Virus record (IMG/VR): IMGVR_UViG_3300031834_000003
Length of the DNA: 64,000 bases
Direction: 5' to 3' (one strand)
From: an uncultured virus (IMG/VR IMGVR_UViG_3300031834_000003)
Taxonomy: Duplodnaviria; Heunggongvirae; Uroviricota; Caudoviricetes
A program made the position numbers and the translations under genes. The notes below the pieces were generated by a model. That model saw only the letters and a program-made list of their open reading frames with translations. It was not told the origin of the DNA and did no database searches. The number at the start of each line of letters is the position of its first letter. Position 1 is the stretch's first letter. Positions 27,071 to 64,000 of the stretch are shown here, in pieces.

Positions 27071-27948
27071 AAGTATCTATTGTTATTCCCTCTAGGAATG
27101 AAACCTTTGTGGTTCGAATGGTTGAGGACTTGTTACTGAAGGCTACTGGCGATGTTGAAATTATTGTTGTCCAGGATGGACCTCCCTATCAGGAGTTCCC
27201 AAATGACAGGCGTATTGTAGTTGTCAATTCACCTCAGATGGGATTGAAACCCTGTGTCAACTTTGGTGTGGGTATTGCTACTGGAGAGTACATACTCAAG
27301 AGTGATGCTCATTGCATGTTTGGACCAGGCTTTGACGAAATACTAAAAGCTGATATGGAACCAAATTGGGTAGTTGTCCCTCGCTTCTATGTCTTGAATG
27401 CAGAGGAATGGAAGTTACAGGATGACCGGTTCTGGGATTACTTCTTCTTACACTGTCCTTTCACTGACCCAAAAGGTTTCAGGTTCAAGGCTGGTGGACA
27501 CTGGGATAGGAGAACCGCAGACCGTTTGGATATCTCGATTGATGAGACTATGCAGATGCATGGTTCTGCGTGGTTCATGACAAAGACCTATTTCACAAAG
27601 ACGTTGGGTGGAATGAGTTCGGTTGGTTACGATACTTTTGGTATGGAGCCTCCAGAGATTGGACTGAAGACTTGGTTGGGTGCTTGGGATGGCAAGCTGA
27701 TGGTCAATAAGAAGACTTGGTATGCTCACATGCATAAAGGTCGTGAGAGACCCCGAGGCTATCTCCTCAGCCGAGATAGAATTCAAGCCTCGTATGATTA
27801 TGCGGCTCGCTACTGGATTGGTAATGAATGGCAAGAGCGAGTACATAATTTACAGTGGTTAGTTGAGAAGTTCTGGCCCGTACCTACCTGGCCTGACAAT
27901 TGGCGAGAGCTATGGCATACATGGAAAGTGAGTCAAGATGACAAGTAA
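27067..27948 (+). CDS. Glycosyltransferase family 2 (paralogue of 24855)
   Basis: VSIVIPSRNE and GEYILKSDAHC. ATG at 27067 overlaps the previous stop. Confidence 0.85.
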   Translation: MKVSIVIPSRNETFVVRMVEDLLLKATGDVEIIVVQDGPPYQEFPNDRRIVVVNSPQMGLKPCVNFGVGIATGEYILKSDAHCMFGPGFDEILKADMEPNWVVVPRFYVLNAEEWKLQDDRFWDYFFLHCPFTDPKGFRFKAGGHWDRRTADRLDISIDETMQMHGSAWFMTKTYFTKTLGGMSSVGYDTFGMEPPEIGLKTWLGAWDGKLMVNKKTWYAHMHKGRERPRGYLLSRDRIQASYDYAARYWIGNEWQERVHNLQWLVEKFWPVPTWPDNWRELWHTWKVSQDDK

Positions 27949-28867
27949 GAAAGTATTAATTTCCGGCGGTGCCGGATTCATTGGAAGTCATTTAGTCAGG
28001 CGTTTACTAGCTGATGGTAAGTCAGTTATCGTCATTGATGATTTCTCCGAGGGTAGGCGAGAGAACCTTCCTGGTGGTGAGAATCTGATGGTCTTTGAGG
28101 CGTCTGTCTGCGATGGTGTTGACTTTCTTTTCGAGAATGTAGATACAGTCTTTCACTTAGCTGCGTTGCCCAGACCTCAATGGTCGATTACGCATCCCGA
28201 AGAAACACATAGAGTTAATGTAACTGGTACGCTGAAAACACTGCTACATTGTAGGGATAACAATATCAGAAAGGTTGTCTTTGCCTCCAGTGCATTCATC
28301 TATGGAGAGCAGGAAATCCAGCCCATGGCTGAGACAGCTACTCCTTATCTTATGTGTCCCTATGCCTTGCACAAATTGGTTGGTGAGCAATATTGTCAGT
28401 TGTTCTCCGACTTATACGGTCTTCAGACTATTAGCCTGCGTTTCTTCAATGTTTATGGGAGCAGGATGAACCCAGATAGTCCCTATTCTGCCTTGATACC
28501 TAAGTTTATCAAGATGATTGACGAAGGCTTGCCACCTCCTATTCATGGAGATGGACAACAACTCCGAGACTTTGTTTATATTGACGACTTGGTTGATGGA
28601 ATTATTTTAGCCTCGCAGTTAGATGTAGGAGGCGTTATCAATCTGGGTTATGGTAAGACCCGTTCTGTAAATGATGTACACAAAATCATTTGTGACTTGC
28701 TAGGAACATGGGTTGAGCCTGTTCATGTAGACCCTGTAATAGAACCTCGTATATCTCATGCCAATCGTGAGAAAGCTCAGGAACTATTAGGCTGGGTTCC
28801 TAAGATAGATTTAGAAGAAGGAATTAACAGGATTATCAATGAGAGTGTATTCATCAGCACCCTGTAG
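27938..28867 (+). CDS. NAD-dependent nucleotide-sugar epimerase/dehydratase (extended SDR)
   Basis: GGAGFIGS, YALHK (YxxxK), RFFNVYG, RDFVYIDD. Confidence 0.9.
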   Translation: MTSKKVLISGGAGFIGSHLVRRLLADGKSVIVIDDFSEGRRENLPGGENLMVFEASVCDGVDFLFENVDTVFHLAALPRPQWSITHPEETHRVNVTGTLKTLLHCRDNNIRKVVFASSAFIYGEQEIQPMAETATPYLMCPYALHKLVGEQYCQLFSDLYGLQTISLRFFNVYGSRMNPDSPYSALIPKFIKMIDEGLPPPIHGDGQQLRDFVYIDDLVDGIILASQLDVGGVINLGYGKTRSVNDVHKIICDLLGTWVEPVHVDPVIEPRISHANREKAQELLGWVPKIDLEEGINRIINESVFISTL

Positions 28868-29765
28868 AATATCATTATTCGGTGGAGGTACAGACGTTCC
28901 TCCCTATTCAGACAAGTTTGGTGGTGTCTGTATAAGCATCGCTATCAATATTCGACAAGAGATAATCTTGAACGAGGTTGATGATTGGAAGTTGGAGCCA
29001 TTTGATAATCCAGATTTCTTCCATCTCTTGTTGGATAGTCTGGTACTTGGTAATAACTATGGTATTGAGCATACCTTTCGAGGAGAGATTGAGTCTGGTC
29101 TTGGTACCAGCGCTTCTTTAGCAGTAGCTTTGGTAGGTGCAGTTAATAAGTTGAAAGATTGGAAGTGGTCTTTGTCTGAGATTGCTGAGAAAGCCAGAGA
29201 GCTTGAGGTAGATAACATTGGTCTTTTTACAGGGCGCCAGGACCAGTATGCGGCTGCCTATGGCGGTTTCAATATCATGAGTTTCTTCAAGGATATACAG
29301 GTATGGGGACTTAGGAAAGAATTGTTGCAGCCTATAGAGCCATACCTGATGCTATTCCATAATGGAGTGAAGAGACAGGCTGCTAACATCCTCGATGGCT
29401 ATAAGTTTCTTGACCGTGAAAAGATAGAGATGTTCAATCAGATAAAGATATTAGCCTATCAGGGGATTGGCTTACTATCGAAGAAGGATGTTACTTACCT
29501 CGCCAGAACCCTCAATGATTCTTGGGAGATAAAGAAGAAGTCCAGTGTTTTTATTACTAATCCTAAGATAAATATGTACTACGACTTTGCAATTGAGAGT
29601 GGTGCATTAGCAGGAAAGGTTTGTGGCGCCGGTGGTGGTGGCTATATGGTTTTTATTGTCCCTCCAGACATTCAAGAAGAGTTTACTAAGAAGGTCGAGA
29701 AGAAGGGGCTTAGAAGGATAGACTTTTCCCCAGATTGGAAAGGACTAGAGTGCAGGTTCCTATGA
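28839..29765 (+). CDS. hddA: GHMP-family sugar kinase, D-glycero-D-manno-heptose-7-phosphate kinase-like
   Basis: APCRISLFGGGTD, SGLGTSAS, GRQDQYAAAYGG, GKVCGAGGGG. Confidence 0.8.
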   Translation: MRVYSSAPCRISLFGGGTDVPPYSDKFGGVCISIAINIRQEIILNEVDDWKLEPFDNPDFFHLLLDSLVLGNNYGIEHTFRGEIESGLGTSASLAVALVGAVNKLKDWKWSLSEIAEKARELEVDNIGLFTGRQDQYAAAYGGFNIMSFFKDIQVWGLRKELLQPIEPYLMLFHNGVKRQAANILDGYKFLDREKIEMFNQIKILAYQGIGLLSKKDVTYLARTLNDSWEIKKKSSVFITNPKINMYYDFAIESGALAGKVCGAGGGGYMVFIVPPDIQEEFTKKVEKKGLRRIDFSPDWKGLECRFL

Positions 29766-30208
29766 TGACCATGGTAAATAAGATTGCTGAACTTATTAGA
29801 CAGAAGAAAGAGGAGGGACATTTCGTATTTCTTTGTGGTAATGGTGGGAGTGCTGCGAATGCTGAGCACTTTACAAATGACCTCTTTAATCGAGGTGTGA
29901 AAGCGCTCTGTCTCAATAGCAATACTTCTATCGTGACTATGATAGCGAATGACTTCGGCTATTCCTATGTATTTGAGAAGCAATTACAGACATTCTGTCA
30001 TCCGAATGACCTGTTAATTCTTTTCACTGCGAGTGGAAAGTCGGAGAACCTGTTGTATGCAGTTGGCTATTGTGTGACAGTAGCTATTACTGGCAAGAAT
30101 GGTTTTGCCAAAGATATAGATTACATCCTGAAGGTAGACTCAGCCGAGCCTGGAATTATAGAGAGCAAGCACCTTCAGATAGCTCACATTATTACGGATT
30201 TGATATGA
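29762..30208 (+). CDS. gmhA: Phosphoheptose isomerase (SIS domain)
   Basis: CGNGGSAANAEH, TMIANDFGYSYVF, SGKSENL, ESKHLQIAH. Confidence 0.85.
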   Translation: MMTMVNKIAELIRQKKEEGHFVFLCGNGGSAANAEHFTNDLFNRGVKALCLNSNTSIVTMIANDFGYSYVFEKQLQTFCHPNDLLILFTASGKSENLLYAVGYCVTVAITGKNGFAKDIDYILKVDSAEPGIIESKHLQIAHIITDLI

Positions 30209-30210
30209 GC

Positions 30211-30441
30211 CTACTCCAGAATAATCCAATCTGTACCAGACAGGTCCCCATCGGTGACAATGAGGTCATAAAACTTCCCATCCGGTTTGTGGATTTTGAC
30301 ATGCGTATCAACGATTTGGAGAAAGTATTCAGCGTTTCCCCATTCCAATCTGGTGACTTTCTTTTGAGCAAGAAGTTCACGAACACTCTGAGGAAAGTCA
30401 AAGGTTACTTGCATTTGTGCTGGAACTGGACTAGTAGCCAT
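30211..30441 (-). CDS. DUF2829/Tad2-like small protein
   Basis: GGAGG RBS before ATG at 30441; 'F…L…KKVTRLEW…DLSGTDWIILE' pattern. Confidence 0.55.
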   Translation of the reverse strand: MATSPVPAQMQVTFDFPQSVRELLAQKKVTRLEWGNAEYFLQIVDTHVKIHKPDGKFYDLIVTDGDLSGTDWIILE

Positions 30442-30478
30442 TTTTTTGCCTCCATTCATATTATACCTGGAGTTTTGA

Positions 30479-32065
30479 ATGATTGACCTGAGTGTGCTCA
30501 TTCCCAGTCGTAATGAAATGTTTTTGTCTAGGACTATTCAGGATATTCTAGAACATTCTGAGAGTGAGATTGAGATTATTGCTGTGTTAGATGGTGCCTG
30601 GGCAGTGCCTGGTGTTCCTGTTGACCCTCGAGTAACAATCATTCATCATCCCGAGAGTGTTGGGCAACGGGCTGCTACGAATGAGGCTGCTCGAGTATCA
30701 CGAGGTAAGTACCTCATGAAGTGTGATGCTCACTGTGCTTTTGACCAGGGCTTTGATAGAGTGCTATTAGCAGATATAGAGCCTGATATGACTATTGTGC
30801 CAGTCATGAGAAACTTACATGCCTTTGACTGGGTATGTCCTGAGGGACATCGGCGCTATCAGGGTCCATCAGGTCCATGTAAAGAGTGTGGTAAAGAGAC
30901 TGTACGAGATGTGGTTTGGATTGCTAAACCCAGTCCTCAGAGCACTGCTTACCGGTTCGATAAAGATATGCATTTCCAGTACTGGCCTGAGTTGAAGAAG
31001 CGCCAGAAGGGTGACCTTGTAGAAACCATGTCCTTACAGGGTAGTTGCTTCATGGTGCCTCGTGAGACCTATTTTGAGCTCGACTTATGTGATGAGGCTC
31101 ATGGTTCGTGGGGACAGCAGGGTGTTGAAGTAGCCTGTAAGACCTGGTTGAGTGGACGCAGGGTTATTGTGGATAAGAATACATGGTATGCTCATATGTT
31201 TAGGACACAAGGTGGCGATTTTGGATTTCCTTATCCTCAATCGGGAAAGCAGGTAGGTAGAGCTCGTGAGTACTCACGTGATTTATGGATGAATAATAAG
31301 TGGGATAAGGCTGTTCATCCTCTGTCCTGGCTACTTGAGAAGTTTGCACCGGTTCCTGATTGGACACCAGTAGAACCAGAAAGGTCGTGGGGTGTAGTCT
31401 ATTACACAGATAATAATCTTGACCCGGAAATTATGCTCAAGTGCCAGCGTCAGCTAAAGAGGAGTATTGGCAATCATCCTCTAGTTTCGGTCTCTTTGAA
31501 ACCAATAGACTTTGGTGACAATATATGTATGGACCTCGAGGCTGGACCTGTTGCCATGTTCAAGCAAATTCTAGCTGGGGTAGAGCGATTGAAGACTGAT
31601 TATATCTTCTTCGCTGAGCACGATGTTCTTTATAATTCTACTCACTTCGATTTTTTTCCAGTGCAAGAAAATATCTTTTACTATAACGAGAATGTTTGGA
31701 AAGTGAGGATGAGTGATGGACATGGACTTCACTATGACTGCCAGCAACTCAGTGGTTTATGTGCTGAGCGGGACTTATTACTCACCCATTACAGGAAACG
31801 TATTGCACTCGCTGAAGAGAAGGGATTCTCCAGAGCTATGGGTTTTGAACCTGGAACACATGGGCGTGAGGAGCGAGTTGACGACTACAAGGCTGAGAGT
31901 TGGAAATCAGACGTGCCAATCCTAGACCTTCGGCACGATAAAAATCAGACTTCATCTCGATGGACTAAAGAAGAATTTAGAAATAAGAAGTTTACCGAAG
32001 GCTGGGAAGAGAAAGATAATATTCCTGGTTGGGGTCACATATGGCATTGGTGGAAACGGATATAA
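30479..32065 (+). CDS. Two-domain glycosyltransferase (GT2 plus second GT-A-like domain)
   Basis: N-domain is paralogous to 24855 and 27067, with a CxxC insert. C-domain has YIFFAEHDVLY. Confidence 0.8.
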   Translation: MIDLSVLIPSRNEMFLSRTIQDILEHSESEIEIIAVLDGAWAVPGVPVDPRVTIIHHPESVGQRAATNEAARVSRGKYLMKCDAHCAFDQGFDRVLLADIEPDMTIVPVMRNLHAFDWVCPEGHRRYQGPSGPCKECGKETVRDVVWIAKPSPQSTAYRFDKDMHFQYWPELKKRQKGDLVETMSLQGSCFMVPRETYFELDLCDEAHGSWGQQGVEVACKTWLSGRRVIVDKNTWYAHMFRTQGGDFGFPYPQSGKQVGRAREYSRDLWMNNKWDKAVHPLSWLLEKFAPVPDWTPVEPERSWGVVYYTDNNLDPEIMLKCQRQLKRSIGNHPLVSVSLKPIDFGDNICMDLEAGPVAMFKQILAGVERLKTDYIFFAEHDVLYNSTHFDFFPVQENIFYYNENVWKVRMSDGHGLHYDCQQLSGLCAERDLLLTHYRKRIALAEEKGFSRAMGFEPGTHGREERVDDYKAESWKSDVPILDLRHDKNQTSSRWTKEEFRNKKFTEGWEEKDNIPGWGHIWHWWKRI

Positions 32066-32068
32066 ACT

Positions 32069-35000
32069 ATGACTATAGACAGAGAAGTATCAACAACACC
32101 GGGTGGTATTGTTGATAATAATGCCACCTTAGCAAATCTGTCAGTAAGTCGAGTTGCGGCTAATTTAGAGATTGGTGATGTTGTTATTCTATGTGTAGCG
32201 AGATATTCTGCGACTGCCGACCTTCCAGTTTCTAGTGATTGCACAAGAGTAAGTGGGGCTACAGTTGGGGCAATCACATTAGATAAAGTTACTGATAATA
32301 ATGTTACTGGTACAGAACATCTTTATTCCTGTATATGGCGTATCCCGATTACATCATCTGATTCATTAGTTCTTCAAGTAGTGGGGGTAGCGGGTAATTA
32401 TTGGTCTTGGGGTGTAATTATTTATCATCCAACTACATCTTTAGTATTGGAGGATAGTAATATAGGGACTGGAGAGGATGGTGCACCCACAACTGCAAAT
32501 GCTTCATCAGCAGGTGCAGCACAGTTCGTTGGTTCATCGGCTTATTATACTTCTGGTGTTACTACTATTACTCCAGATGCAGCATGGACGGAAATAAGTG
32601 AAGAAGAAAATGGTAGTGCCCATATGTGTGGGTCATTTATTGACCGAACTGTGGCATCTACAACTACTGATGCGGCTTCATGGACAGCCCCAACAGAAAA
32701 TGCTTGGGCTGCTGCTATAGCAGTATATAGTGAACCCGGTGGAGTTGTTCCTAGTGATTCTATTTCTCCATCCGCTAGTATTTCTCCAACTCCATCTTCT
32801 AGTGTGAGTAGGTCTACATCTCCTTCTGCGTCCAGGTCTGCATCCCCATCTCTTTCTCCATCTAAGTCTGCATCGATGTCTGTTAGTCCTTCAGCATCTA
32901 AGTCTGCGTCCCCTTCTGCTTCTAAATCTTTATCTCCATCAGCTTCAGTTTCTAGGTCTGTATCTCCTAGTGCTTCCAGGTCTGCATCCCCTTCAAGTTC
33001 GCCAAGTGCTTCTAAATCGCTTTCTCCATCATCTTCAGTATCACCAAGTGCCAGTGCTAGTGTATCCCCAAGTGCTAGTCCTAGCTCTTCCCCCAGTGCA
33101 AGTGCTAGTTTATCTCCCAGTACTTCAGTTTCAGCATCAACTAGTCCATCAGATTCTCCGAGTGCGAGTATGTCTCTCTCACTCTCGGCATCTGTATCAT
33201 CTTCAGTTAGTCCGAGTGGTTCTGCGAGTGTAAGCCCTAGTATAAGTCCATCAGAAAGTCCTAGCCTATCTCCATCAGCTAGTGAGTCTCCTTCTGTAAG
33301 CGTTAGTGTGTCTTCATCGGTTTCTCCAAGTGTATCTCCGTCAGTTAGTTTATCTGAATCTCCGAGCGCATCTGTTTCTCCCAGTGTGTCATTATCAGAA
33401 AGTCCATCTGAATCTCCTAGTATATCTTTATCAACTAGTCCTAGCGAATCTCCTTCAGCCTCGCCTAGCTTGTCACCTTCTGAAAGTATTAGTCCCAGTG
33501 AGTCTCCTAGTATTAGCTTATCGGTTTCTCCTAGTGTTTCGGTCAGTACAAGTCCTTCTGAGTCGCCTAGTGTATCTTTATCTGAAAGTCCTTCAGCCTC
33601 AATTAGTTCCTCAGAGAGTCCTAGTGTATCCGTTTCTGAGTCTCCCTCTGTTAGTACTTGGACCAGTTCATCGGTTAGTCCGAGTGAGAGTGCATCAGAG
33701 TCTTCAAGCGCAAGTCTTAGTGTATCTCTATCTGTTTCGCCTAGCACATCTTCATCTAAAAGTTCTTCTACCAGTCCTTCTGTGTCTCCCTCAGAGAGTG
33801 CTTCTGTAAGTCCGTCGGTTTCACCTTCCGCATCAGCTTCAGTTAGTTTATCTATTTCCCCGAGTGCTAGTGTATCTATAAGTGTTAGTCCTTCGGTATC
33901 CCCGAGTGCTTCTTCCAGTGTATCTCCCTCTGCTAGTATGTCCATTTCTCCTAGCAGTTCTGTCTCTCCATCGGTATCACCCAGTGTAAGTCGTTCAGTT
34001 TCTCCGAGTGCTAGTGCTTCGGTAAGCCCATCAGAAAGCCCTAGTGTTAGCTTATCAATTTCACCAAGCGCTTCTGTGTCCGTGTCTGTTTCTCCTAGCG
34101 TATCACCTTCAGTAAGCCCATCTGTTAGCTTGTCGGCATCTCCCAGTACCTCACCTTCTGTAAGCTTGAGCGTGAGTCCTTCTGCGAGTGTGAGTATAAG
34201 CACCTCGCCTAGTGGCTCTGCTTCTACCAGTCCTAGTGTGTCACCTTCGGTATCTGTTTCTATTAGTCCATCAGTGAGTTTGTCTGTGTCTCCAAGTGCT
34301 AGTATCTCACCCAGTGTGTCTCTAAGCGTGAGTCCTAGTGTAAGTCCATCATCTAGCCAAAGCTTATCTCCATCAGCCAGCGTAAGTATTAGTACCAGTC
34401 CATCTGTCTCTCCATCAGGTAGTGCTTCAGCAAGTCCTTCTGTTTCTCCATCGGCTTCTGCTTCAGTGAGCTTGTCCATTTCTCCGAGTGCAAGCATATC
34501 TATAAGTGTTAGCCCTTCAGTATCTAGGAGTGTGTCTGTTTCTGTTTCAATGTCAGTAAGTCCTTCGCTTTCACCAAGCACCTCGGTATCACCAAGTGTA
34601 TCTGTTAGTGTTAGTCCCTCAGTTTCACCAAGTAGTAGTGCCTCAGCTAGTCCCTCAGCCAGCCCTTCGGTTTCTCCTTCTCTAAGCCCAAGTGCTAGTG
34701 TGAGCATCTCGGTTAGTCCTAGTGGGTCTGCTAGTGCTTCTCTATCAGTCTCCCCATCGGCTTCAGCTAGTTCTTCACCCTCAGTAAGTCCTTCTGCTTC
34801 AGCTTCTGCTAGTCCCTCTGTATCACCTTCTGTTTCTCCATCAGTAAGTCTCTCGGTGTCTCCAAGTGCGAGTGTATCTCTTAGTACAAGTCCATCTGCT
34901 AGTGGGTCCGCGAGTCCTTCTGAGTCACCTAGTGTTTCACTATCTATCAGTCCCTCGGCTTCAGTAAGTCCGTCCGGGTCTGCTAGTGTGAGCCCCAGTG

Positions 35001-38000
35001 TAAGTCCTTCAGTAAGTTTATCGATAAGTCCATCGGTCTCACCCAGTGTGAGCCCTTCAATATCCCCTTCTGCTAGTGTCTCAATTTCTATAAGTCCAAG
35101 TGTTTCTCCCTCGGTATCTTCTAGCATTTCGCTTTCTATCAGTCCTTCTGCATCAGTTAGTTCTAGTGTATCTCTTAGCATTAGTCCCTCGGTATCTGTA
35201 AGTGTGAGTCCGAGCGCTAGTGCTAGTGCTTCCCCTTCTTCCTCACCTAGCTTGTCTCCATCCTCGAGTGTGAGCCCTAGTAGTTCAGCTAGTATAAGTC
35301 CATCAGCATCAGCAAGTACGTCTCCATCTATTAGTTCCTCGATATCTATTAGTGTATCTCCGTCTAGCAGTGCAAGCTTAAGCCCTAGTAAGAGTACAAG
35401 CCCTTCGGTTAGTGTGAGTGCTTCTCCGAGTGTATCTCCTAGTGCTAGTTCTTCAGCCAGTCCATCTCTTAGTCCATCGATGAGTATCTCGCCTTCAGGT
35501 AGTGCTAGTGTTAGTCCTTCTACATCCCCGAGTGAGAGTGTAAGTGTTAGCCCGAGCGTGAGTGTATCTATTAGTCTGAGTATCTCTCCTTCAGGGAGTA
35601 CTAGTTCAAGTGAATCGCCTAGTGTTTCTCCCTCTGTTTCTGTGTCTGATAGTCCTTCGGTTTCACCAAGTGTTTCAGTTTCTGTGAGTCTTTCTATATC
35701 TCCAAGTAGCTCTGTATCTCCTTCAGAAAGTCTTAGTGCTTCACCTTCAGCTAGTTCATCTAGTTCACCAAGCATAAGTATATCGGTTAGTCCAAGCGTT
35801 TCAGTTTCAGTTTCCCTTAGTGAAAGTCCTTCTGTTAGTCTCAGTGTTTCTCCGTCTAGCAGTGTATCTCCCAGTTCCTCGGCTAGTGTGTCACCATCAG
35901 TATCTCCCTCGAGCAGTGCTTCTGCATCACCAAGCGCATCAGCTTCAGTAAGTTTGTCTGTGTCCCCGAGCGCTTCTGTATCGCTTTCTGATAGTCCTAG
36001 CAGTTCAGCATCGACCAGTCCATCTAGTTCTCCTAGTGTGAGTTTGTCAATTAGTCCTTCGGTGTCTGTGTCTGTTAGTGCTAGTATCTCTCCATCTGCT
36101 AGTGCTTCAGTGTCTCCGAGTGTTAGTCCTTCGATATCTCCATCAGTCTCGGTGTCCCCTTCTGCTAGTGCGAGTGCATCACCTTCGGCTAGTCTATCTG
36201 TCAGTCCCTCGGTGTCGCCAAGCATCTCACCTTCAGTTAGTCTAAGTGTGAGCCCTTCAGCCAGTGTGAGTGTGAGTACTTCGCCTAGTGCTTCTGCATC
36301 AATTAGCCCGAGCATATCACCCTCAGTATCAATCAGTGTAAGTCCATCAGTGAGCCTGTCTGTGTCTCCCAGCGCTTCGGTCTCAATCTCGGTATCCCCC
36401 AGTGTGAGTCCAAGTGCTAGTCTATCTGTTTCGCCTTCTGTATCTCTTAGTGTTAGTCCTTCAGCGAGCATTAGCCCTTCGGCAAGCGCTTCGGTCTCTC
36501 CTAGTGTATCTATCTCAGTAAGTCCATCTGTTAGTGTGTCGATATCACCTTCAGAGAGTTTATCTGTTTCACCCAGTAGTAGTATTAGTCCCTCTGGGAG
36601 TGCAAGCGCTAGTCCCTCTGTATCAGCTTCAGTGAGTATTAGCATAAGCCCTAGCGTTTCTCCAAGCGAGAGCGTATCTGTGTCTCTTAGTGAGAGCTTA
36701 TCAGTTTCTCCATCCTCTTCTATAAGTCCAAGTGAGTCAGTATCAGTATCTCCAAGTGCTTCGTTATCTATATCACCTTCCGAAAGTGTTTCTATCTCAC
36801 CATCTGAGAGCTTATCTATTTCACCAAGTAGTAGTGTAAGTTCTTCGGAAAGTGTTAGTGTTTCTCCTTCAGTGTCTACTTCAGTTAGTATTAGTGTTAG
36901 TCCTTCAGAGAGTTCGAGTGGAAGTGCATCTATATCTCCGAGTGTTAGTCTATCTATTTCTCCCTCGGCGTCAGTGTCAATATCAATTAGTCCTAGTGTA
37001 TCTTTATCGATTAGTCCAAGTGCTTCGGTTAGTATAAGCGTCTCACCAAGCGTTTCTCCTAGCGAATCGCTTAGTTTCTCGCCTTCTATAAGCGTTTCTG
37101 TCAGTCCTAGTGGCTCCGCAAGCGCCAGTCCTAGTGTCAGTCCCAGTGTAAGCTTATCAGTAAGCCCTAGTTCTAGTGTGTCACCTTCAGCTAGTCCATC
37201 TGAGTCTTTGTCTGTATCGCCCTCGATTTCTCCCTCGGTTAGTATGTCTGTCAGTCCTTCTGTCAGTCTTTCAATCTCTCCGAGTACTTCAGTTAGTCCC
37301 TCTGAGAGTTCGAGTGTGAGTAGCTCTGTATCACCATCTATCTCACCTAGTGTCTCAGCATCTGTATCACCTTCTGAAAGTCCTTCAGCCTCACCATCAT
37401 TATCACCTAGTGGTTCCTGGTCACCTGGCAGCACTTCTGATTCTGTATCAGTCAGTCCTTCCTGGTCCCCAAGTGCTTCTGTAAGTCAGTCGGAAAGTCC
37501 GAGTGAGAGTGTTAGTATCTCGCCTTCTGTATCTTTGAGTGTGTCTTCCTCAGAGTCTGTGTCTGTTAGCCCTTCAGTTAGTTCCTCGGAAAGTTCTTCT
37601 GTAAGTCCGAGCCAATCATTATCTGTTAGCCCATCAGCTTCTGTTAGTCCCAGCGAAAGTCCTTCGATATCATTATCCATCAGTCCATCAACTTCTATTT
37701 CACCCAGTGTGTCTCCATCTGAGAGCCTGAGTATTTCACCCTCGAAGAGTATCTCAGTCTCAGTTAGTCCCAGCGAGAGTTTGTCTCTGTCTCCATCAAC
37801 TAGTGAGAGTGTGAGTGTTAGTCCATCTGTATCTCAATCAATATCTCCAAGCACTTCTGTTAGTGCTTCAGCAAGTCCAAGTGTATCAATCTCTGTATCA
37901 CCCTCAGAGAGTTTGAGTGTAAGTCCTTCTGTTTCTCCATCCGAGAGCGTCTCTATCAGTCCCAGTGAAAGTATGAGTATCAGTCCATCCTGGTCTGTCA

Positions 38001-40576
38001 GTCCCTCGGAGAGTGTTTCAATAAGTCCAAGCGAGTCTCTCTCTATCTCGCCAAGTATGTCTGTAAGCTTGTCAATCAGTCCAAGCGCTTCAGTGAGTAT
38101 ATCTATAAGTCCATCAGGAAGTGCTAGTACCTCCCCCAGCGTATCGCCCTCAGTGTCATTGAGCATCTCTCCTAGCAGTTCAGAGAGTGTATCCGTTAGC
38201 CCATCAGAGAGCCTGAGTATATCTCCTTCTGCTTCAGAGAGTGCATCCGAAAGTCCTAGTGTATCTGTCTCTGAGTCGCCTTCTGTCAGTACCTGGACTA
38301 GCTCCTCGGTAAGTGTAAGTGTAAGTCCTTCCGAGAGTCCCAGTGAGAGTGTCTCTGTATCCGAAAGTGTATCTCCCAGCGAGAGTGTGAGTATCAGTCC
38401 CTCTGTTAGCTTGAGTGTCAGTCCGTCAACTAGCATTAGTCCTTCGGTCTCTCTGTCAGTATCTTTGTCGGTCTCACCCTCAGCTAGTGTAAGTCCAAGC
38501 GAAAGTCTATCGTTCAGCCCATCTATCAGCCCGAGCGAATCGCTTAGTATTAGTCCGAGTTCAAGCGTTTCCCCCAGTGTTTCGCTTAGTTTCAGCCCGA
38601 GTGAAAGCGTTAGTGTAAGTCCCTCAGAAAGTTTGAGTGTGTCTCCATCTAGTAGTGCTAGTCTTTCTCCATCAGCTAGTGTGAGTATTTCTATTAGTTC
38701 CTCGGTATCACCATCGCAGAGTGTTTCTATTAGTCCCTCTGTAAGTATGTCTGTCTCCCCATCCGAGAGCCTTTCAATTTCTCCTAGCTTTAGTGTTTCT
38801 CCATCAGCCAGTTCTTCAGAAAGTCCATCAGCTAGTGCCTCTGTTTCACCCAGTGAGTCATTATCTATTAGCCCTTCGTTCTCTGTTAGTCCCTCTGAGT
38901 CAGTCAGTGAGTCTCCCTCTGCATCTCCATCCGAGAGTGTATCAGTTAGCCCGAGCGAAAGTTTGTCTGAAAGTCCATCGTTATCTCCAAGTAGTTCCTG
39001 GTCTCCTGGTAGTGCCTCTGGGTCCGTGTCTGTTAGTCCTTCTCTCTCACCAAGCGAGTCTGTTAGTCAGTCGGTGTCACCCTCAGAGTCTTTATCTATA
39101 TCACCTTCTACATCGGTCAGTGTTAGTGAAAGTCCTAGCGCTTCACCATCCGAGAGTATCTCAATTTCTCCCAGTGTCTCTCCAAGTGAGAGTAGTTCTA
39201 CGAGTCCTTCAGCGAGTGCCTCAGTATCACTTTCTGTCAGTCCGAGTTCTTCAGTAAGTTCCAGTGAGTCTGTTAGCTTTAGTCCCTCTGAGTCTCCTAG
39301 CATTTCTCCTTCTGTTAGTTTGAGTGTCAGTGCTAGTGTAAGTCCCTCGGAGAGTGCATCAGAGTCGCCAAGCGAGTCTCCTTCGGAAAGCATATCAGTT
39401 TCACCATCTGAGTCTGTATCTGTATCGGTGTCAGAGTCTCCATCTGTTAGTTCTTCAGTGAGCTTATCTGAAAGCTTATCGTTATCTCCCTCGTTTTCTA
39501 TTTCATTATCTATCTCCCCATCGGCTTCTGAAAGTCTGTCTGAGTCACCTTCTGTTTCTTTATCGATTAGTGTGTCGGAAAGTCCATCAGTTAGCCTCTC
39601 GGTTTCTCCAAGTTCTTCCGTAAGTCCTAGTAGTTCTGCATCAATATCTCCTAGTGTAAGTCCCTCGATATCACCTAGCATTTCTCTATCTGCTAGTGCT
39701 TCTATATCATTATCTATCAGTCCGAGTGCATCTGAGAGTTTGAGTATTTCTCCGAGTGAAAGCAGTTCTATTTCTCCTAGCGCATCGGCTTCTGTAAGTC
39801 CAAGTGAAAGTGCTAGTGAGAGTCCATCTGAAAGTGTGTCGTTTAGTCCGAGCGAGTCGCCTTCAGTGTCCTTGAGCGTAAGCCCCTCGGCTAGTGTATC
39901 GCCTTCAGTTAGTAGCTCTGAGAGTCCCAGTGTTTCAATCTCTGTGAGCCGGTCTGTGTCTCCCTCTGTATCTTCCAGTGAGAGTTTGTCTATCAGTCCT
40001 AGCTCCAGTGTGAGTGGGTCTGTTAGTCTCTCGATGTCTCCCAGCTTGTCTCCCTCAATGAGTGTATCTGAGAGTGTAAGTCCGTCTGGTTCAGTTAGCG
40101 TTTCCGTGTCTCCATCCGAGAGCTTGTCGCTATCTCCATCATCCTCGGTGTCTCCTAGTGAGTCTGCATCAGAGAGTCTCTCTGTAAGTCCTAGTGTATC
40201 AGCCTCAGAGAGCTTGTCTATCTCGCCATCAGCTTCAGATTCTGTATCAGTAAGTCCTAGTGAGAGTAGGAGTATGTCTCCGTCGGTGAGTGTTAGCTTA
40301 TCACCCTCGGTATCAGTGAGCTTCAGTCCGTCGGCGTCTCCTAGCACATCATTGTCTTTTTGCCCTAGTGTCAGTCCTTCGGTAAGTAAAAGTATTAGTC
40401 CATCATTCAGTGTGTCTGCATCTATTAGTCCGAGCGCCAGTCTAAGTCCATCACTTAGCTTTTCTCCATCAGTGTCACCAAGTATGTCTAGAAGTATCTC
40501 TCCAAGTGCTGGTGTGAAAACTACTGAGGTCTTATTCAGAGGCATGTTCCGAGGCATGGAAAGAAAAATGAGATGA
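32069..40576 (+). CDS. Giant Ser/Pro-rich repeat (mucin/SRRP-like) putative virion protein
   Basis: 2835 aa: a ~225-aa globular N-domain, ~2580 aa of (S-x)n/SPS repeats, and a short basic C-tail ([14 protein letters not shown]). Confidence 0.8.
32750..40510 (+). repeat. Coding low-complexity repeat (S-P-S-V/A/I/E-S)
   Basis: Serine at almost every second residue, encoded by mixed TCN/AGY codons. Confidence 0.95.
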
Positions 40577-54140: not shown

Positions 54141-54983
54141 CTAGAGTGTGGTGATTTGGACGCCAATGATATCAATGGCTCCAAAGTTAGCTGCTTGCTC
54201 TAGTGCTTCGGGACTATCTGCTAGACCACTAGCAGGTTGATTGGTGCTTGTATCCCAGAGCATATAGCCGATGACCTTTGGCTCTTCGAAAGAGGGGAAC
54301 ATTGGAAGTAACTTGCTGCTTTCCTCTTTGCGTTCTCGTTGTAGCGCTTCTACATCGTCGTTGGTGAGAGCATAGCCACGAGGCTTGTTCTCAGACTGTA
54401 GAACCGTCTGGAGTTTTGCTACTGCCTTATCCTGATAGTGCGAGGATAATTTAGCGAGGTTCCTGGCAGCTTCTGGCTGTACAACGCCTGCTGTAACTCC
54501 CTCGATGATTTCATTAGGTAACTTCATGTATTCTTTCAGTTTCCTAATGCGAGGCTGAGGTATGCTAGTCCAGCGGCTGATAAAGCCGTTGTCTGCAATG
54601 GTAGGACCATATGTGTCCATCATAGTTCTGATAGCGTGCATATCTGCCAGGTCGTTGCTAGACCGGCTGTTATTATCAGCGCTACGAGCCATGATAGCTT
54701 TCATCATTGGCATGTGTGCATAACGGGCTGGGATAGTCTCCCACTCCAGAATACGACTGCCTTTGATGCGCCGATTGCCTGCGATGACGAATTGAGTACC
54801 ATCCTCGGTAATAGCTACCAGGATTGGCTCCATTACCTGTCCTCGGTCTCGTAATTCCTGTAGGAATTCCCGAGTGACTGGTTTGGATAATAGCTTATCG
54901 TTGGGAGGTAAGGTATCTACTGATGCTACCTTATCTTCCCAGTCAACCCCTGCGAGGCTAATTAGTTCTAACTGGAAGTCCAT
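54141..54983 (-). CDS. ParB/Srx-like N-terminal domain protein
   Basis: EPILV…VIAGNRRIKG, plus a helical HTH-like region. Confidence 0.8.
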   Translation of the reverse strand: MDFQLELISLAGVDWEDKVASVDTLPPNDKLLSKPVTREFLQELRDRGQVMEPILVAITEDGTQFVIAGNRRIKGSRILEWETIPARYAHMPMMKAIMARSADNNSRSSNDLADMHAIRTMMDTYGPTIADNGFISRWTSIPQPRIRKLKEYMKLPNEIIEGVTAGVVQPEAARNLAKLSSHYQDKAVAKLQTVLQSENKPRGYALTNDDVEALQRERKEESSKLLPMFPSFEEPKVIGYMLWDTSTNQPASGLADSPEALEQAANFGAIDIIGVQITTL

Positions 54984-59581: not shown

Positions 59582-60084
59582 GATTTCTCCTCAGCTTGGA
59601 TTTCTTTCACGAAGTTAAGCATGTCTCTGGCTGCATCAAGACGTCTGGGACCATCGTGCTCAGAGTTGTAGTGAGCAAACCTATAATAGGCTGTACCATG
59701 GCACTCATGTTGTTTTGTCTTCTTGTAGATTGGGCAACCTTTACATTTACCTTCATGCTCAAAGAGCATACAGTATGCACAAGTTACACCACTGAATCCA
59801 AAAAGTTCTGTAAAAATACCAGAGTCACTTTGTGCTACACATTCTCGTTCTATGAGTGCCCATTTCTCAACTACGAGGGCTGTTGCCATTTCTAGTGGCA
59901 TATTCTTTTCAGGTGTGAAGTTTTCCCACCAAAACCAACGATTAGTACCACCTGCAGTTTTCTCTGTTTCAATCTTGAAATGCGAACTACTTCTAGCTTC
60001 ATCATTCATCTGTATATCCTGCCTCGGTTTTCTCTGGGTGCCGGTCATCAGACCTGGCATCGTTAATTGCTTTCTGCTCATCAA
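59578..60084 (-). CDS. Cys-rich hypothetical protein (paralogue B)
   Basis: KW…TCAYC…CKGCPI…ECHGTAYYRF. Confidence 0.55.
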   Translation of the reverse strand: MMSRKQLTMPGLMTGTQRKPRQDIQMNDEARSSSHFKIETEKTAGGTNRWFWWENFTPEKNMPLEMATALVVEKWALIERECVAQSDSGIFTELFGFSGVTCAYCMLFEHEGKCKGCPIYKKTKQHECHGTAYYRFAHYNSEHDGPRRLDAARDMLNFVKEIQAEEKS

Positions 60085-60465
60085 TATATTCTACGAGGTT
60101 ACGTAGATGTCTGCGCCAATAATGAGCACCACTCTTTTTGGCAATACAAAGCATATCAGCCTGCTTTTTAGTTATGATACCTTTATTGATAGCATCATTA
60201 GCTATTTTCCAGAATAACTCTTTCAGTTCTTTGGTACTGGTCCATTGATTATTGTTCATCTTTTGCCTCCATATTGCTGCCTGGACAAAGTTTCCTAAAT
60301 GGTTTTTTAGTTATTTGAGTATGTAGTCTTAGCACATGAATAGAACCATCGCCACCCTTTGGTATCTTTAGAGCATAGAAGTTTCCACACACTGGACATC
60401 TTGACCAACCGTATGGATATGATTTACTTGTCATTTTTGCCTCCATATTAATTATAGCTTTGAAT

Positions 60466-60526
60466 AAAAAAGAAGCCCGTTTGCTTATCCAGTCGCTTCG
60501 CGCCTTCTTCTGGTAGCAAACGGGCC
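60466..60526 (-). terminator. Long hairpin with U-tract
   Basis: On the - strand, GCCCGTTTGCT…AGCAAACGGGC followed by TTCTTTTTT. Confidence 0.6.
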
Positions 60527-60551
60527 TCATTTCAAAAGAAACATCCACCTA

Positions 60552-60821
60552 TTAGTATTCCTCTGGTAGAAGAAATGTAGTAGCGCTTCGGTCGGCTTCG
60601 GTGATTATCCAGAGCCGACCTGCTTTAGTATCATACGCTGAGAGGATACGAAGATGTTTATCTTTTGAGTAATCGTTCTCTAGCTTATCCTCGGAAGATA
60701 AATCACCCCAATCGCCCTGTTGGTGGCGAACCAGATAGTGCCATAGGTTCACGCCTTGTTCTGCTAAACCCATGGCACCTGGAGTAGTAACGACTTGTCC
60801 TAGTACGAGTAGAGGTTCCAT
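60552..60821 (-). CDS. Conserved small plasmid/phage protein
   Basis: LGQVVTTPGA…RHQQGDWGDL..ED…N…RILSAY…WIITEADRSATTFLLPEEY, a family pattern common in mobile elements. Confidence 0.7.
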   Translation of the reverse strand: MEPLLVLGQVVTTPGAMGLAEQGVNLWHYLVRHQQGDWGDLSSEDKLENDYSKDKHLRILSAYDTKAGRLWIITEADRSATTFLLPEEY

Positions 60822-61146
60822 ATTTTTCTTGCACTAGAAAAGTAGTGAATGGTTTTCTATCCATTCTCGAGCCAGGTCACGAACAAGACCCGCGAGGTCG
60901 GGATGGATAGTTTCCTGAGAGATTGCTGGAGCCTGGGCTGCTACTCGAATGAAATCTGGGAAGTCTACATCCAGACCACATTCTTTAGCAGTTTCCATTA
61001 CACTCCGACAAGCCTCGATATTGCTATAATCCACGGAGTAATCATCTTTTGCTAATTCTCTTGCAAGATTTGCAAAGGAAATAGCAAGTTTGATTGTACC
61101 CAGAATATAGTCTTTCTCCAATTTTTCATTTTCTCGATTGTTTCTA

Positions 61147-61533
61147 TCACCATGGTATAGGACCATTATATTTTGAGGCTCCTTGTCTTATCATATACTT
61201 GAGGAATTCAATCCAGCTACCATCACCCTTGATAAAGCTGGTAATGGTCTCGCCATTCTTATCTGCAATCTTCATTCCCCATTTTCCATCAGGTAACTGA
61301 CATGGAAGGAACCACTTTCCATCCTTGGTCTTCCATTTCAGTTCCAGATTGCTCTTCTCGAGGCATTCTATAATTATAGATGCCTCGCCATGGTTCTCAG
61401 CGTGGATTACACCATTCATATCAGGGAGTTCAATAGTTTTGGTGTTCCATAGCATCCATCCTCCTGCGAGGAAGAGTGAGATAAATGTAATGTAGAAAAA
61501 GCCCGAGTTTCCTCGGGCTATGGTATCGGTCAT
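61147..61533 (-). CDS. Membrane-anchored hypothetical protein
   Basis: N-terminal TM segment followed by HAENHG. Confidence 0.5.
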   Translation of the reverse strand: MTDTIARGNSGFFYITFISLFLAGGWMLWNTKTIELPDMNGVIHAENHGEASIIIECLEKSNLELKWKTKDGKWFLPCQLPDGKWGMKIADKNGETITSFIKGDGSWIEFLKYMIRQGASKYNGPIPW

Positions 61534-62054
61534 CAGTTGTAGCTTTCCCTCTCTGCCTCTCGGCGTTTCTCAGGATGTTCCTTGCCATATTCCTCGCAGT
61601 AAGAACCTGCGAAGTGGAACCAAGCTCGTTTACCTTCTTCTGCCCTATTGTGACCGGTGCAGAAGAACCAGCCATCTTGTGTTGCTAATCGTGCTTGCTC
61701 TTCCCAATATCCAAGAATCTCGTGTGAGAATTCTCTGCATACAATTGCCTCGCCACCCTGGTTCTTGCGTCTTACCCAAATGTGGTCTGGCAAGCCTCTC
61801 CAGTATGAGGTGTCCACAAAGAAGTATAAGTGTGGATACCTCTCTTGTAATTTCAGGTCAACCTTCAGCTGCTTATGTTCGATGTCATTTCGTTCTAACA
61901 TCTTTGCAGATTCTGGGGAGGCAAGATATTCCTCGGTGATGTACATGGATGAGGAACCAAGTTCTTTGTAAGGGGCAAAGATAATGCGATATCCCTTACC
62001 GTCCTTGATAATGTCAAACAGAGGCCAGCGCCTCTTGAGGTCATCGATATTCAT
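61533..62054 (-). CDS. Hypothetical protein
   Basis: AAAGGAG RBS; 173 aa. Confidence 0.55.
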   Translation of the reverse strand: MNIDDLKRRWPLFDIIKDGKGYRIIFAPYKELGSSSMYITEEYLASPESAKMLERNDIEHKQLKVDLKLQERYPHLYFFVDTSYWRGLPDHIWVRRKNQGGEAIVCREFSHEILGYWEEQARLATQDGWFFCTGHNRAEEGKRAWFHFAGSYCEEYGKEHPEKRREAERESYN

Positions 62055-62111
62055 GATTCTCCTTTGTTTTTGGGGAGTGCCAGGTGGCTTTTACACCACC
62101 TGGCTATGATA

Positions 62112-62528
62112 CTAGAACGGTGGCGGTGCACCCTGCTCGAGTGCATCAGTCACTTCTTCGTGACCATTGCTTTCGGTCTCACCACGGCTGGAAAGGAACT
62201 TAACAGTTGCGGCATTCACTTCAAATGATGCGCCAGCAGTGCCATCTTGCTTGGTCCAGATAGCAGGTCCACCAGTGACCTTATCGGGAGTTAGCCGACC
62301 TTCGACCAGAACCTTGCTACCTCTCTTGAGGTATTGATTGCAAGCCTCTCCTTGCTTACCCCAAGCTGAGACACGGAACCAAATGGTTTCCTCAACTTGT
62401 TGTCCATCCGACCCAGTGTATTTGCGATTGGTTGCAACGTTGAAATTCGTTACAGCCTGTCCACTGGGTAGATAGCGCATCTCGGGGTCTTTTCCGAGAT
62501 TTCCTACAATGATAATGGTATGGTACAT
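62112..62528 (-). CDS. ssb: Single-stranded DNA-binding protein
   Basis: IIVGNLGKDPEMRY…NFNVATN…WFRVSAWGKQ…KGSKVLVEGRL with a PPF tail. True start is ATG at 62528 after AAAGGAG. Confidence 0.92.
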   Translation of the reverse strand: MYHTIIIVGNLGKDPEMRYLPSGQAVTNFNVATNRKYTGSDGQQVEETIWFRVSAWGKQGEACNQYLKRGSKVLVEGRLTPDKVTGGPAIWTKQDGTAGASFEVNAATVKFLSSRGETESNGHEEVTDALEQGAPPPF

Positions 62529-62791
62529 TTTATTACTCTCCTTTACTAAGATATGTTTTAACTGGTGTAAATCACCAGCACAAACCAACCAAAAGAAACA
62601 TCCCCCATTGTTATTTCTTGGACAAGTGAAGAGATTTGAACTCTCATTATCTTGATTCACAGTCAAGCTCTCTGCCATTGAGATACACTTGTCTACGTAC
62701 TAGACCACAAATTCACACCCATTCTCCGGTTCTATGCTTGGACACTCTCAAATAGAGGTTCTATGAAATCCCGGAAACGGTCTACTCATTA

Positions 62792-63019
62792 TTAGAGTGG
62801 AAATGGTACATCACTTGCCCACGCTATGAACGTGAGCAGAAGAACAAAGCCTGCTGTTGCCAGTAGGAACAGGAAGACTGTTCCTGCTAACATTTCTGAC
62901 TTAATTGTCTTTTCGTAATCGATGAGCAGTTTGTTATTCACGTTACGTTCAATCATGAGACGTTTCTTTCCCAGTTCGTCTAAGCTTTTATAAAGCTCAT
63001 CACCCACATCAATGTTCAT
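62792..63019 (-). CDS. Small membrane protein
   Basis: AAGGAG RBS; C-terminal TM segment. Confidence 0.5.
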   Translation of the reverse strand: MNIDVGDELYKSLDELGKKRLMIERNVNNKLLIDYEKTIKSEMLAGTVFLFLLATAGFVLLLTFIAWASDVPFPL

Positions 63020-63038
63020 GTTTTCTCCTTAGTACTTA

Positions 63039-63511
63039 TTATTCGCTTGGGCATATTGGGTTACTTTCTCTCTATGGCTCGCTCTCTGTCATTGGTTTAC
63101 TTCAACGATTTGGCTCGCTCTTTCCATTTGGGTTACTCTCGACTTATGGCTCGCTTTTGATATTTGGGTTACTTCTTTGACATGGCTCGCTTTTCTGCAT
63201 TGTGTTACTTATGTATAGTGGCTCGCTTGAATAGACTGGGTTATTTCTTTCTCTTGGCTCGCTTTCCTTTTATGGTTTACTTGAATATATAGGCTCGCTT
63301 GCTTTCCCTGGTTTGCTTGAGGCGTGTGGCTCGCTTTCCTTTCGTGGGTTACTCAACCAAAATGGCTCGCTTATCAGTGATGGTTTACTTTCCTCATTTG
63401 GCTCGCTCATCTATCTTGGTTTACTTGCATAATTTGGCTCGCTACCCTTTTTTGGATTTCTCAATACTTGTGGCTCGCTCTCGTAAACTGGTTTTCTTCT
63501 ATTCGATGGCT
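63039..63511 (-). ncRNA. TIGR-like dual-repeat/dual-spacer guide RNA array, 13 units of 36 nt
   Basis: TGGCTCGCT (one copy AGGCTCGCT) starts at 63075, 63111 … 63471, exactly 36 nt apart, alternating with TGG(G/T)TTACT. Each repeat is separated by a unique 9-mer. On the - strand: AGCGAGCCA-N9-AGTAA(A/C)CCA-N9. Confidence 0.9.
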
Positions 63512-64000
63512 GACCAGCCAAAATCTTCTGGTAGATATATATGCGTATGCCCTAAATGCTCATGAACATAAGGTGCACGAATTGGTAATCCTTCAATCTG
63601 GCGCCACACTAACCAAAGATGTGATAACCACATTTTTACCATTCGACCTGTAGCCGCACGATGTATATGCAATGGAGTCCAATCACGACCCTCGGTATAA
63701 TACTCTCGACTAGAGTCGTAAATAGCACGATATGGACTGTTGCATTTTAGGAAACTTCCTGCTATTAGAAAGCAGGTTGAGTGAAGGCGGGCATTATAAG
63801 GTAAAGGAACTCCTGAGGTTGGTTTATCTCGCTTACCATTTGCATCCATGCCATAGCCTGCATACTTCCATAGAGCGCTGATAGTATTTGCTCTGTGAAT
63901 ATCAACCACACAAACTACCTTAGCAGCCAGAATTCGTCCAATTCCTTTGACTTCAATCATGCGCTCAATTATTTCAATCCCCTTAGTTGCATTTGCAATG
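63499..64000 (-). CDS. Tas-like protein (Nop / IS110 C-terminal-like RNA-binding domain), 5'-truncated by window end
   Basis: VKGIGRILAA…SALWKYAG…YNARL…SFLK..SPYR.IYD…HIHRAA.GRMVKMWLSHLW.VWR..EGL. The frame is open to base 64000 and the stop lies inside the first array unit. Confidence 0.8.
   Translation of the reverse strand, partial: IANATKGIEIIERMIEVKGIGRILAAKVVCVVDIHRANTISALWKYAGYGMDANGKRDKPTSGVPLPYNARLHSTCFLIAGSFLKCNSPYRAIYDSSREYYTEGRDWTPLHIHRAATGRMVKMWLSHLWLVWRQIEGLPIRAPYVHEHLGHTHIYLPEDFGWSAIE

Follow-up and report, generated by a model that had tools for sequence, protein, structure and literature searches.

What does a strictly periodic run of short repeats encode when it lies directly behind a gene of a phage-like element? 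The question is raised by one end of a stretch of 64,000 nucleotides (nt) from an uncultured virus (IMGVR_UViG_3300031834_000003; this whole stretch is referred to as the window). A sequence-only reading of the window had proposed an array of 13 dual-spacer guides of the TIGR type, served by the adjacent protein, and a programmable RNA-guided system that targets DNA. We read the locus, which consists of a tas gene and the array that follows it on the minus strand, as a dual-repeat TIGR-TasA system on a phage-like element, with a probability of roughly 0.88. It adds an example and no new principle, and it displays every testable structural feature of such systems except the typical terminator. 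The locus is also far less unusual than had been implied, since TasA is described as the commonest Tas effector (Faure et al. 2025, PMC12045711) and thousands of arrays have been catalogued (6,685 arrays from 20,096 tas loci; Xu et al. 2026, 10.64898/2026.09.09.750476).

Dual-repeat TIGR arrays are described as two alternating repeats of 8–12 nt separated by spacers of about 9 nt, usually in 5–15 units, with the first edge repeat truncated at its 5' end and the last at its 3' end (PMC12045711). When the minus strand from 63515 to 63043 was aligned in rows of 36 nt, 13 perfectly phased units with a period of exactly 36 nt were observed, each in the order 9-nt edge repeat (AGCGAGCCA), 9-nt spacer A, 9-nt loop repeat (AGTAAMCCA) and 9-nt spacer B. 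The two alternating repeats and spacers that had been proposed are therefore borne out in register, all 13 spacer A/B pairs are correct letter for letter, and the limits that had been given (63039–63511) agree with the array to within 4 nt at either end. Unit 0 (63480–63515, minus strand) begins with a 5'-truncated edge (GGTCAGCCA, in which AGCCA alone is preserved), followed by spacer A, the loop AGAAAACCA and spacer B. The final codons of tas run into this unit, and the stop codon of the gene falls within its spacer A. Units 1–12 (63048–63479, minus strand) are full 36-nt units that start at 63479, 63443 and so on down to 63083. They are followed by a terminal edge repeat (63043–63047, minus strand) that is 3'-truncated to AGCGA and would give the last guide its 3' end. 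Within units 1–12 the edge reads AGCGAGCCA throughout but AGCGAGCCT in unit 6, and the loop departs from AGTAAMCCA by single bases in units 1, 5, 7 and 8. Single-base repeat variants are thus found in 5 of the 13 units, mostly at positions that also vary in the family, i.e. loop positions 3 and 6.

A search of the window for the two-repeat pattern (AGCGAGCCA-N9-AGTAAMCCA, up to two mismatches) returned 12 matches, all on the minus strand and all in the 36-nt register, while 100 dinucleotide-preserving shuffles gave none; unit 0 falls outside these matches because its edge is 5'-truncated. Tandem Repeats Finder likewise reported rows of period 36 and 72 across 63055–63443. Folding of the array RNA shows no extra structure relative to shuffled sequences (z of +0.86), as is expected of dual-repeat rather than stem-loop arrays. 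In published arrays the box motifs of edge and loop match each other, and divergence is allowed if both agree (PMC12045711). Here, both repeats begin with AG (box D) and end with CCA (box C), and the same start and end are seen across 1,509 units of the family. The design therefore fits the published dual-repeat definition, in agreement with the TIGR-type assignment. An Rfam search of 60000–64000 placed the array in no family, with only a tRNA above threshold, and the repeat strings of the array are absent from the main text of Faure et al., which was the part of that paper searched.

The gene directly upstream of the array is represented by its 3' two thirds (63499–63999, minus strand), with 166 codons and a TAG stop at 63501–63499. 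It runs off the window end, beyond which lies a 5' part of about 63 codons. The visible product comprises the end of a coiled coil and a Nop domain, and its reading frame is intact across all 166 codons. To the NCBIfam family NF052498 ("TIGR-Tas system RNA-guided endonuclease", cut-off 100 bits), this fragment scores 136 bits and its relative P0002 scores 172 bits. P0002, from the protein collection, has 229 amino acids (aa) and is 98% identical to the window protein across the whole fragment. The fragment also aligns to the solved structures of TasR (9mty, E 2.2e-22) and TasH (21kl, E 2e-17) and matches PHROG 4285 (E 4.9e-31). That the neighbouring protein belongs to the system was thus rightly anticipated. 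PADLOC returned no match, megablast of 62000–64000 against cultured phages found none, and scanning viral contigs for the protein pattern of the 166-aa fragment confirmed no relative. An exact 40-mer taken from the window end likewise had no match in viral contigs. Pfam assigned no significant family to the protein. An IS110-family RNA-guided transposase was considered as an identity for the protein and rejected, at 16.9 bits for NF033542 (cut-off 140) and a sub-threshold 16.5 bits for the IS110 C-terminal family PF02371 (cut-off 21.3).

The effector is almost certainly TasA, the nuclease-free form of Tas, judging from its sequence relatives. This assignment is made because the 98%-identical, full-length P0002 has 229 aa and no nuclease domain. 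Residues 6–226 of P0002 align to residues 71–308 of TasH, leaving the HNH-bearing N-terminus of TasH without a counterpart. The AlphaFold model of P0002 (predicted local distance difference test, pLDDT, 94.9) finds its best fold matches in TasH (9w04_B; E 3.9e-13, template modelling score, TM, 0.88) and TasR (9mty_B; TM 0.77), followed by the IS621 recombinase (E 4.7e-4). Among the other relatives listed at 91–291 aa, 59 of 61 have 224–289 aa, and the remaining two have 148 and 206 aa. A search for longer forms listed two proteins from 186 candidates, one of 303 aa with extensions and one of 623 aa with an intein, and neither is fused to a nuclease. In a homologue of 61% identity, found on a viral contig of 49.8 kb, the ATG has an in-frame stop two codons ahead of it, and a ribosome-binding site is present. 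As an aside, the 623-aa protein (P0065) is a TasA homologue (50–64% identity in its two halves) that is interrupted by a Hint and LAGLIDADG insert, with the intein placed between residues matching about 190 and 189 of P0002.

In SpTasH, Y289 and H296 are reported to catalyse cleavage of the pre-tigRNA (PMC13421893), and a role for Tyr and His in processing is also described in the preprint of Xu et al. (10.64898/2026.09.09.750476). Both residues are present here. The Tyr codon at 63568–63570 (minus strand; residue 144 of the fragment, Y207 of P0002) aligns with Y289, and the His codon at 63547–63549 (minus strand; residue 151 of the fragment, H214 of P0002) aligns with H296, the chain numbering in this alignment agreeing with the residue numbering of PMC13421893. 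When 51 relatives are aligned, Y207 and H214 each show at least 90% conservation. As for the place of cleavage, the edge copy that follows the last full unit keeps positions 1–4 in 85–91% and positions 5–9 in 47–61% of 177 array ends, and the edge copy before the first full unit shows the mirror-image pattern. This break in conservation between positions 4 and 5 fits cleavage there, and the guide register AGCCA...AGCG that had been suggested matches the place where edge conservation stops.

Pairing of two Tas subunits was assessed by modelling. The two-copy model of P0002 scores 0.60, as compared with 0.00 for the best of three controls. Of 30 proteins solved as same-chain pairs, 20 attain that mark, and of 23 solved as single chains, one does. 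Contact agreement between runs is at least 97%, partner pLDDT is at least 84, and the modelled interface is formed by the N-terminal helical hairpin (residues 2–67). The model supports dimerization of P0002 through its coiled coil without proving it. Since Tas dimers have already been solved, this result may reflect likeness to known structures.

Scans for the exact pattern located the same two repeats in viral contigs (51 stretches) and in metagenome contigs (at least 130 stretches). When the window fragment was used as a tblastn query against these 175 loci, 78 rows reached E ≤1e-5. In 69 rows the match extends to the C-terminus, some of these rows being overlapping parts of a single contig. 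Units share the strand of tas in 68 of the 69, and they are found only downstream of tas in 35, on both sides in 26 and only upstream in 8. Only five loci share even one further gene with the window. The contigs are thus otherwise unrelated to it, and this indicates that the gene–array pair travels as a cassette.

The spacers themselves are diverse. The 175 loci (L001–L175) hold 1,868 units with 1,499 distinct spacer pairs, and none of the 12 full-unit pairs of the window recurs among them. The last spacer base is less variable: in the window, position 9 is A or G in all 13 copies of spacer A and in 11 of 13 copies of spacer B. Across 1,509 distinct units of the family it is a purine in about 90% for both spacers (G about 0.63, A about 0.27). 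This leaves 8 nt per spacer that vary freely, and either box D effectively has three bases (R-A-G) or the targets carry a preferred base.

At least part of 62700–64000 is contained in 19 runs. The nine that contain at least half of the sampled words are all labelled sediment metagenome, and three of these nine may be the source of the window. Contigs, not reads, from four of the runs were compared with the window, and array parts that no contig covers are uninformative. The X5 contig is identical to the window wherever it covers it. In a 140-nt contig from X4, all nine differences fall in spacers (seven of them in unit 2 and a single one in each of units 0 and 1). Of the 140 positions covered, 66 belong to spacers, so that by our own arithmetic the chance of nine out of nine is about 0.001. 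A contig from X8 shows a changed spacer A in unit 10, with three substitutions, one deletion and one insertion, together with a difference at loop position 6 and an unchanged spacer B. In the same contig, 63264 is joined straight to 63301, so that unit 6 is exactly skipped, a hint only, as no more than 17 letters extend past the joint at a depth of about 4. The unit-6 deletion and the spacer substitutions each come from a single contig at a depth of about 4. A second X5 contig was also noted, which matches 63002–63036 and continues with 220 nt of unrelated sequence in place of the array; in this co-occurring variant the array may be absent, or other sequence may stand at 63036.

Half-units are shared among loci as well. 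Within the 1,499 distinct units, an identical spacer A is combined with an unrelated spacer B (at least four differences) 48 times, and the converse is seen 58 times, as compared with 22 coincidences in a control that counted spacer A sequences recurring elsewhere as spacer B. This suggests that half-units re-assort, or that the same half-sites are repeatedly selected. We tentatively propose, as a possibility that is more doubtful than not, that the array turns over in natural populations by single-spacer changes and by loss or gain of whole units, and that in the family at large spacers A and B re-assort independently by recombination at the 9-nt repeats. The population differences and the half-unit sharing are the only parts of this analysis that go beyond what we met in print, and the data are thin. 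If turnover is real, it would give a first view of how TIGR guides are renewed, a question treated as open by both Faure et al. (2025) and Xu et al. (2026).

By its gene content, the window is a tailed-phage-like element, as had been supposed: it encodes an SU10-type adaptor, an endolysin/peptidase, a tail-fibre domain, a DnaB-like helicase, a primase, an HNH endonuclease, a Sak4-like protein, SSB and a ParB-like protein. On the minus strand, tas and the array are followed by an open reading frame (ORF) of 75 codons, a tRNA-His gene, SSB and further replication genes. The 75-codon ORF (62792–63019, minus strand) has a hydrophobic C-terminal stretch and an AAGGAG site upstream, and matches no family. 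The tRNA-His gene (GTG; 62620–62692, minus strand) overlaps the listed start of the SSB ORF (62112–62678), which places the true SSB start further in. The ParB-like gene (54141–54983, minus strand) lies 8.5 kb downstream on the tas strand, is not adjacent, and scores below the cut-off for Pfam ParB_N; ParB-like genes are reported in operons with some tasA genes (Faure et al., PMC12045711).

Elsewhere in the window, two giant ORFs on the plus strand match no PHROG. One (4254–15638; 3,794 aa) contains a short DEAD-helicase-like stretch, and the other (32069–40576; 2,835 aa) is full of 12- and 24-nt periodic repeats. A 1,629-codon antisense ORF mirrors the latter and is probably a by-product of its repeats. 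Among the phage genes there is also a glycosyltransferase cluster (24855–32065, plus strand), with four family-2 glycosyltransferases, a nucleotide-sugar epimerase and a methyltransferase-like ORF.

From these parts, and by analogy with described TIGR-Tas systems, we infer the following course of events. The array follows tas immediately on the same strand, and the two would probably be co-transcribed; in the simplest case transcription would read through the array into early genes. A TasA dimer, joined via its N-terminal helical hairpin, would bind each 36-nt unit through the shared AG (box D) and CCA (box C). The Tyr/His pair, in a C-terminal loop of the Nop domain, would then cleave the edge repeat, most likely between its fourth and fifth base, to yield 13 guides of the form AGCCA-spacer A-AGUAAMCCA-spacer B-AGCG. 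The two spacers would pair with opposite DNA strands at adjoining sites, together forming an address of about 16–18 bp. TasA would be expected to bind tightly and so block transcription or replication of a target in the host or in a rival element, with binding and not cleavage expected because the protein lacks a nuclease domain. RNA-guided DNA binding without cleavage is therefore the most likely function, probably in the form of transcriptional repression; TasA and inactive TasR have been reported to repress reporter and chromosomal genes in E. coli (10.64898/2026.09.09.750476). Of the DNA targeting that had been proposed, membership in the TIGR-Tas systems thus stands, and cutting gives way to binding or repression.

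Several observations weigh against this account of the locus. Consensus scanning found no promoter-like site on the minus strand of 62000–64000, and a scan for terminator-like sites found no rho-independent terminator there. A terminator after the array is typical, not obligatory (PMC12045711), and at the place where it would typically stand, 24 nt past the last edge, the 75-codon ORF and its ribosome-binding site begin. No RNA run is among the runs listed as containing the locus. The N-terminal 63 or so residues of the window protein lie outside the window, and its lack of a nuclease domain is read from its relatives. The repressor role of TasA, too, is known only from heterologous assays of other family members.

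Nor did the search for targets of the paired spacers in both orders, which the earlier reading had suggested, bring up a convincing site in either the window or 0.93 Mb of related loci. Both opposite-strand geometries were searched with gaps of 0–2 (gaps of up to 2 bp are reported to be tolerated; Faure et al., PMC12045711) and up to two mismatches. Within the window this gave one two-mismatch site, for unit 2 at 55331, which we treat as chance (about 0.2 expected by our own estimate). The 1,500 spacer pairs of the family, compared with 933,654 unmasked bases in window and loci together, gave no exact site in any geometry. With one mismatch, 13 and 6 sites were counted in the target-like geometries versus 11 and 7 in the same-strand controls, and with two mismatches 81 and 104 versus 115 and 109, i.e. 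no excess over the controls in these 0.93 Mb. Larger collections are too big for the specificity of an 18-mer, as a chance match is expected for each one, a point also made in the preprint of Xu et al. (10.64898/2026.09.09.750476).

Some of these gaps would be accounted for if the locus were silent or decaying, i.e. recognisable but no longer expressed or functional. Such a locus could well show what was seen here: no promoter or terminator in the consensus scans, no RNA run among those listed, and a single-base repeat variant in 5 of 13 units. However, all 166 visible codons are open and the processing residues are kept, the variants fall mostly at the family-variable loop positions, and differences between samples avoid the repeats, which suggests that these are under constraint. 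We therefore consider decay improbable. A TIGR system with a nuclease effector, in which the missing 5' part of tas encodes the nuclease domain of a TasH or TasR and the guides direct cleavage, seems slightly less probable still. The window does cut the gene so that its N-terminus lies outside, the nuclease domains of TasH and TasR are N-terminal, and the name of the matched NCBIfam family includes "endonuclease". Yet the 98%-identical relative, at 229 aa, begins where residue 71 of TasH aligns, the 61%-identical homologue is bounded by its upstream in-frame stop, and neither of the two longer forms among the 186 candidates is a nuclease fusion.

The remaining explanations do without a TIGR system. 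The repeats could be DNA sites bound by a protein that the phage uses in replication or partition, as in iterons or a centromere-like array, and their position in a block of replication genes (SSB, primase, helicase), with a ParB-like gene 8.5 kb away on the same strand, would suit this. But in 68 of 69 rows the units keep one orientation relative to tas, as suits an RNA rather than a symmetric DNA site; they accompany tas in otherwise unrelated contigs, only five loci sharing another gene with the window; and relatives of this Tas protein are published as binding and processing such arrays as RNA. A DNA-site array is accordingly very unlikely. Least probable of all, to the point of being nearly negligible, is a coding repeat of 12 residues or a miniature CRISPR array. 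The period is divisible by three, and repeats around unique sequence do look CRISPR-like, but stop codons are present in all six frames over 63043–63515 (2–13 per frame, with a longest open run of 74 codons), there are two kinds of 9-nt repeat with spacers of 9 nt, cas genes and repeats of 25–36 nt are both absent, and the neighbouring protein is Tas and not Cas. On both counts the sequence-only reading had judged correctly. A dual-repeat TIGR-TasA system thus remains the preferred reading.

TIGR-Tas systems, relatives of CRISPR with two guide segments in every short RNA, were described in 2025 and are under development as compact, motif-free genome tools. The present locus is a clean phage-borne TasA example, with 13 guides in a block of replication genes, that recurs across sediment samples with differences at the level of spacers. 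It could serve as a natural case for guide turnover and target finding once host genomes from the same samples are examined.

How does the locus compare with known systems? CRISPR arrays share the tandem repeats around unique guides, the processing of a long precursor and an associated effector gene. They differ in having one repeat type of 25–36 nt, one similar-sized spacer per unit, single-strand pairing, a protospacer adjacent motif and Cas1/Cas2, none of which is seen here. IS110 bridge RNA recombinases and archaeal box C/D sRNPs share a Nop-type RNA-binding domain and a dual-guide logic. In contrast to these, the guides here are laid out in a regular array and not as a single bridge RNA, and the protein has no DEDD transposase domain.

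Among Tas proteins of known structure, the TIGR-TasH of Salicola phage CGphi29 (9w03, 9w04, 21kl) resembles the window protein in fold (TM 0.88) and sequence (about 28% identity over 96%) and has the Tyr/His processing pair; it is also phage-borne with a dual-repeat array. It differs in its N-terminal HNH domain of about 70 residues, which is absent here, and in its 8-nt spacers, and it cuts DNA, whereas the window protein should only bind it. TaTasR of Thermoproteota (9mty) has a homologous Nop domain (E 2.2e-22, TM 0.77), 9-nt spacers, 36-nt guides and a CCA box C, but carries an N-terminal RuvC nuclease and has UG as box D.

The dual-repeat TIGR-TasA systems of PMC12045711 are closest in kind. 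In these, the array likewise adjoins a gene for a protein of about 230 aa with a coiled coil, a Nop domain and no nuclease, on a phage or mobile element, and the arrays have the same 36-nt units of edge, spacer A, loop and spacer B with 9-nt spacers and truncated end edges; the FpTIGR locus of Flavonifractor plautii is an example. Box D is AG here and UG in TasR arrays, and FpTasA is likened to the window protein by description. The present locus differs in that unit 0 overlaps the 3' end of tas, an arrangement reported as infrequent for dual-repeat arrays (10.64898/2026.09.09.750476), and in that the array runs without a terminator into a small ORF and a tRNA gene. The closest homologue from a cultured phage is that of Microcystis phage Mvi-JY20 (PP438412), with 34% identity over 96% and a 36-nt dual-repeat array directly downstream whose edge core, GCGAGCC, is similar. 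It differs in an edge that starts with T (box D UG), in its loop repeat and in the hairpin with a T-run that terminates the array. At this locus (L176 2950–4040, i.e. 21367–22457 of PP438412), the record names nothing but hypothetical proteins, the TasA homologue among them, and a small minus-strand ORF is annotated inside the array. The host of Mvi-JY20 is known, and its spacers can therefore be searched against that host.

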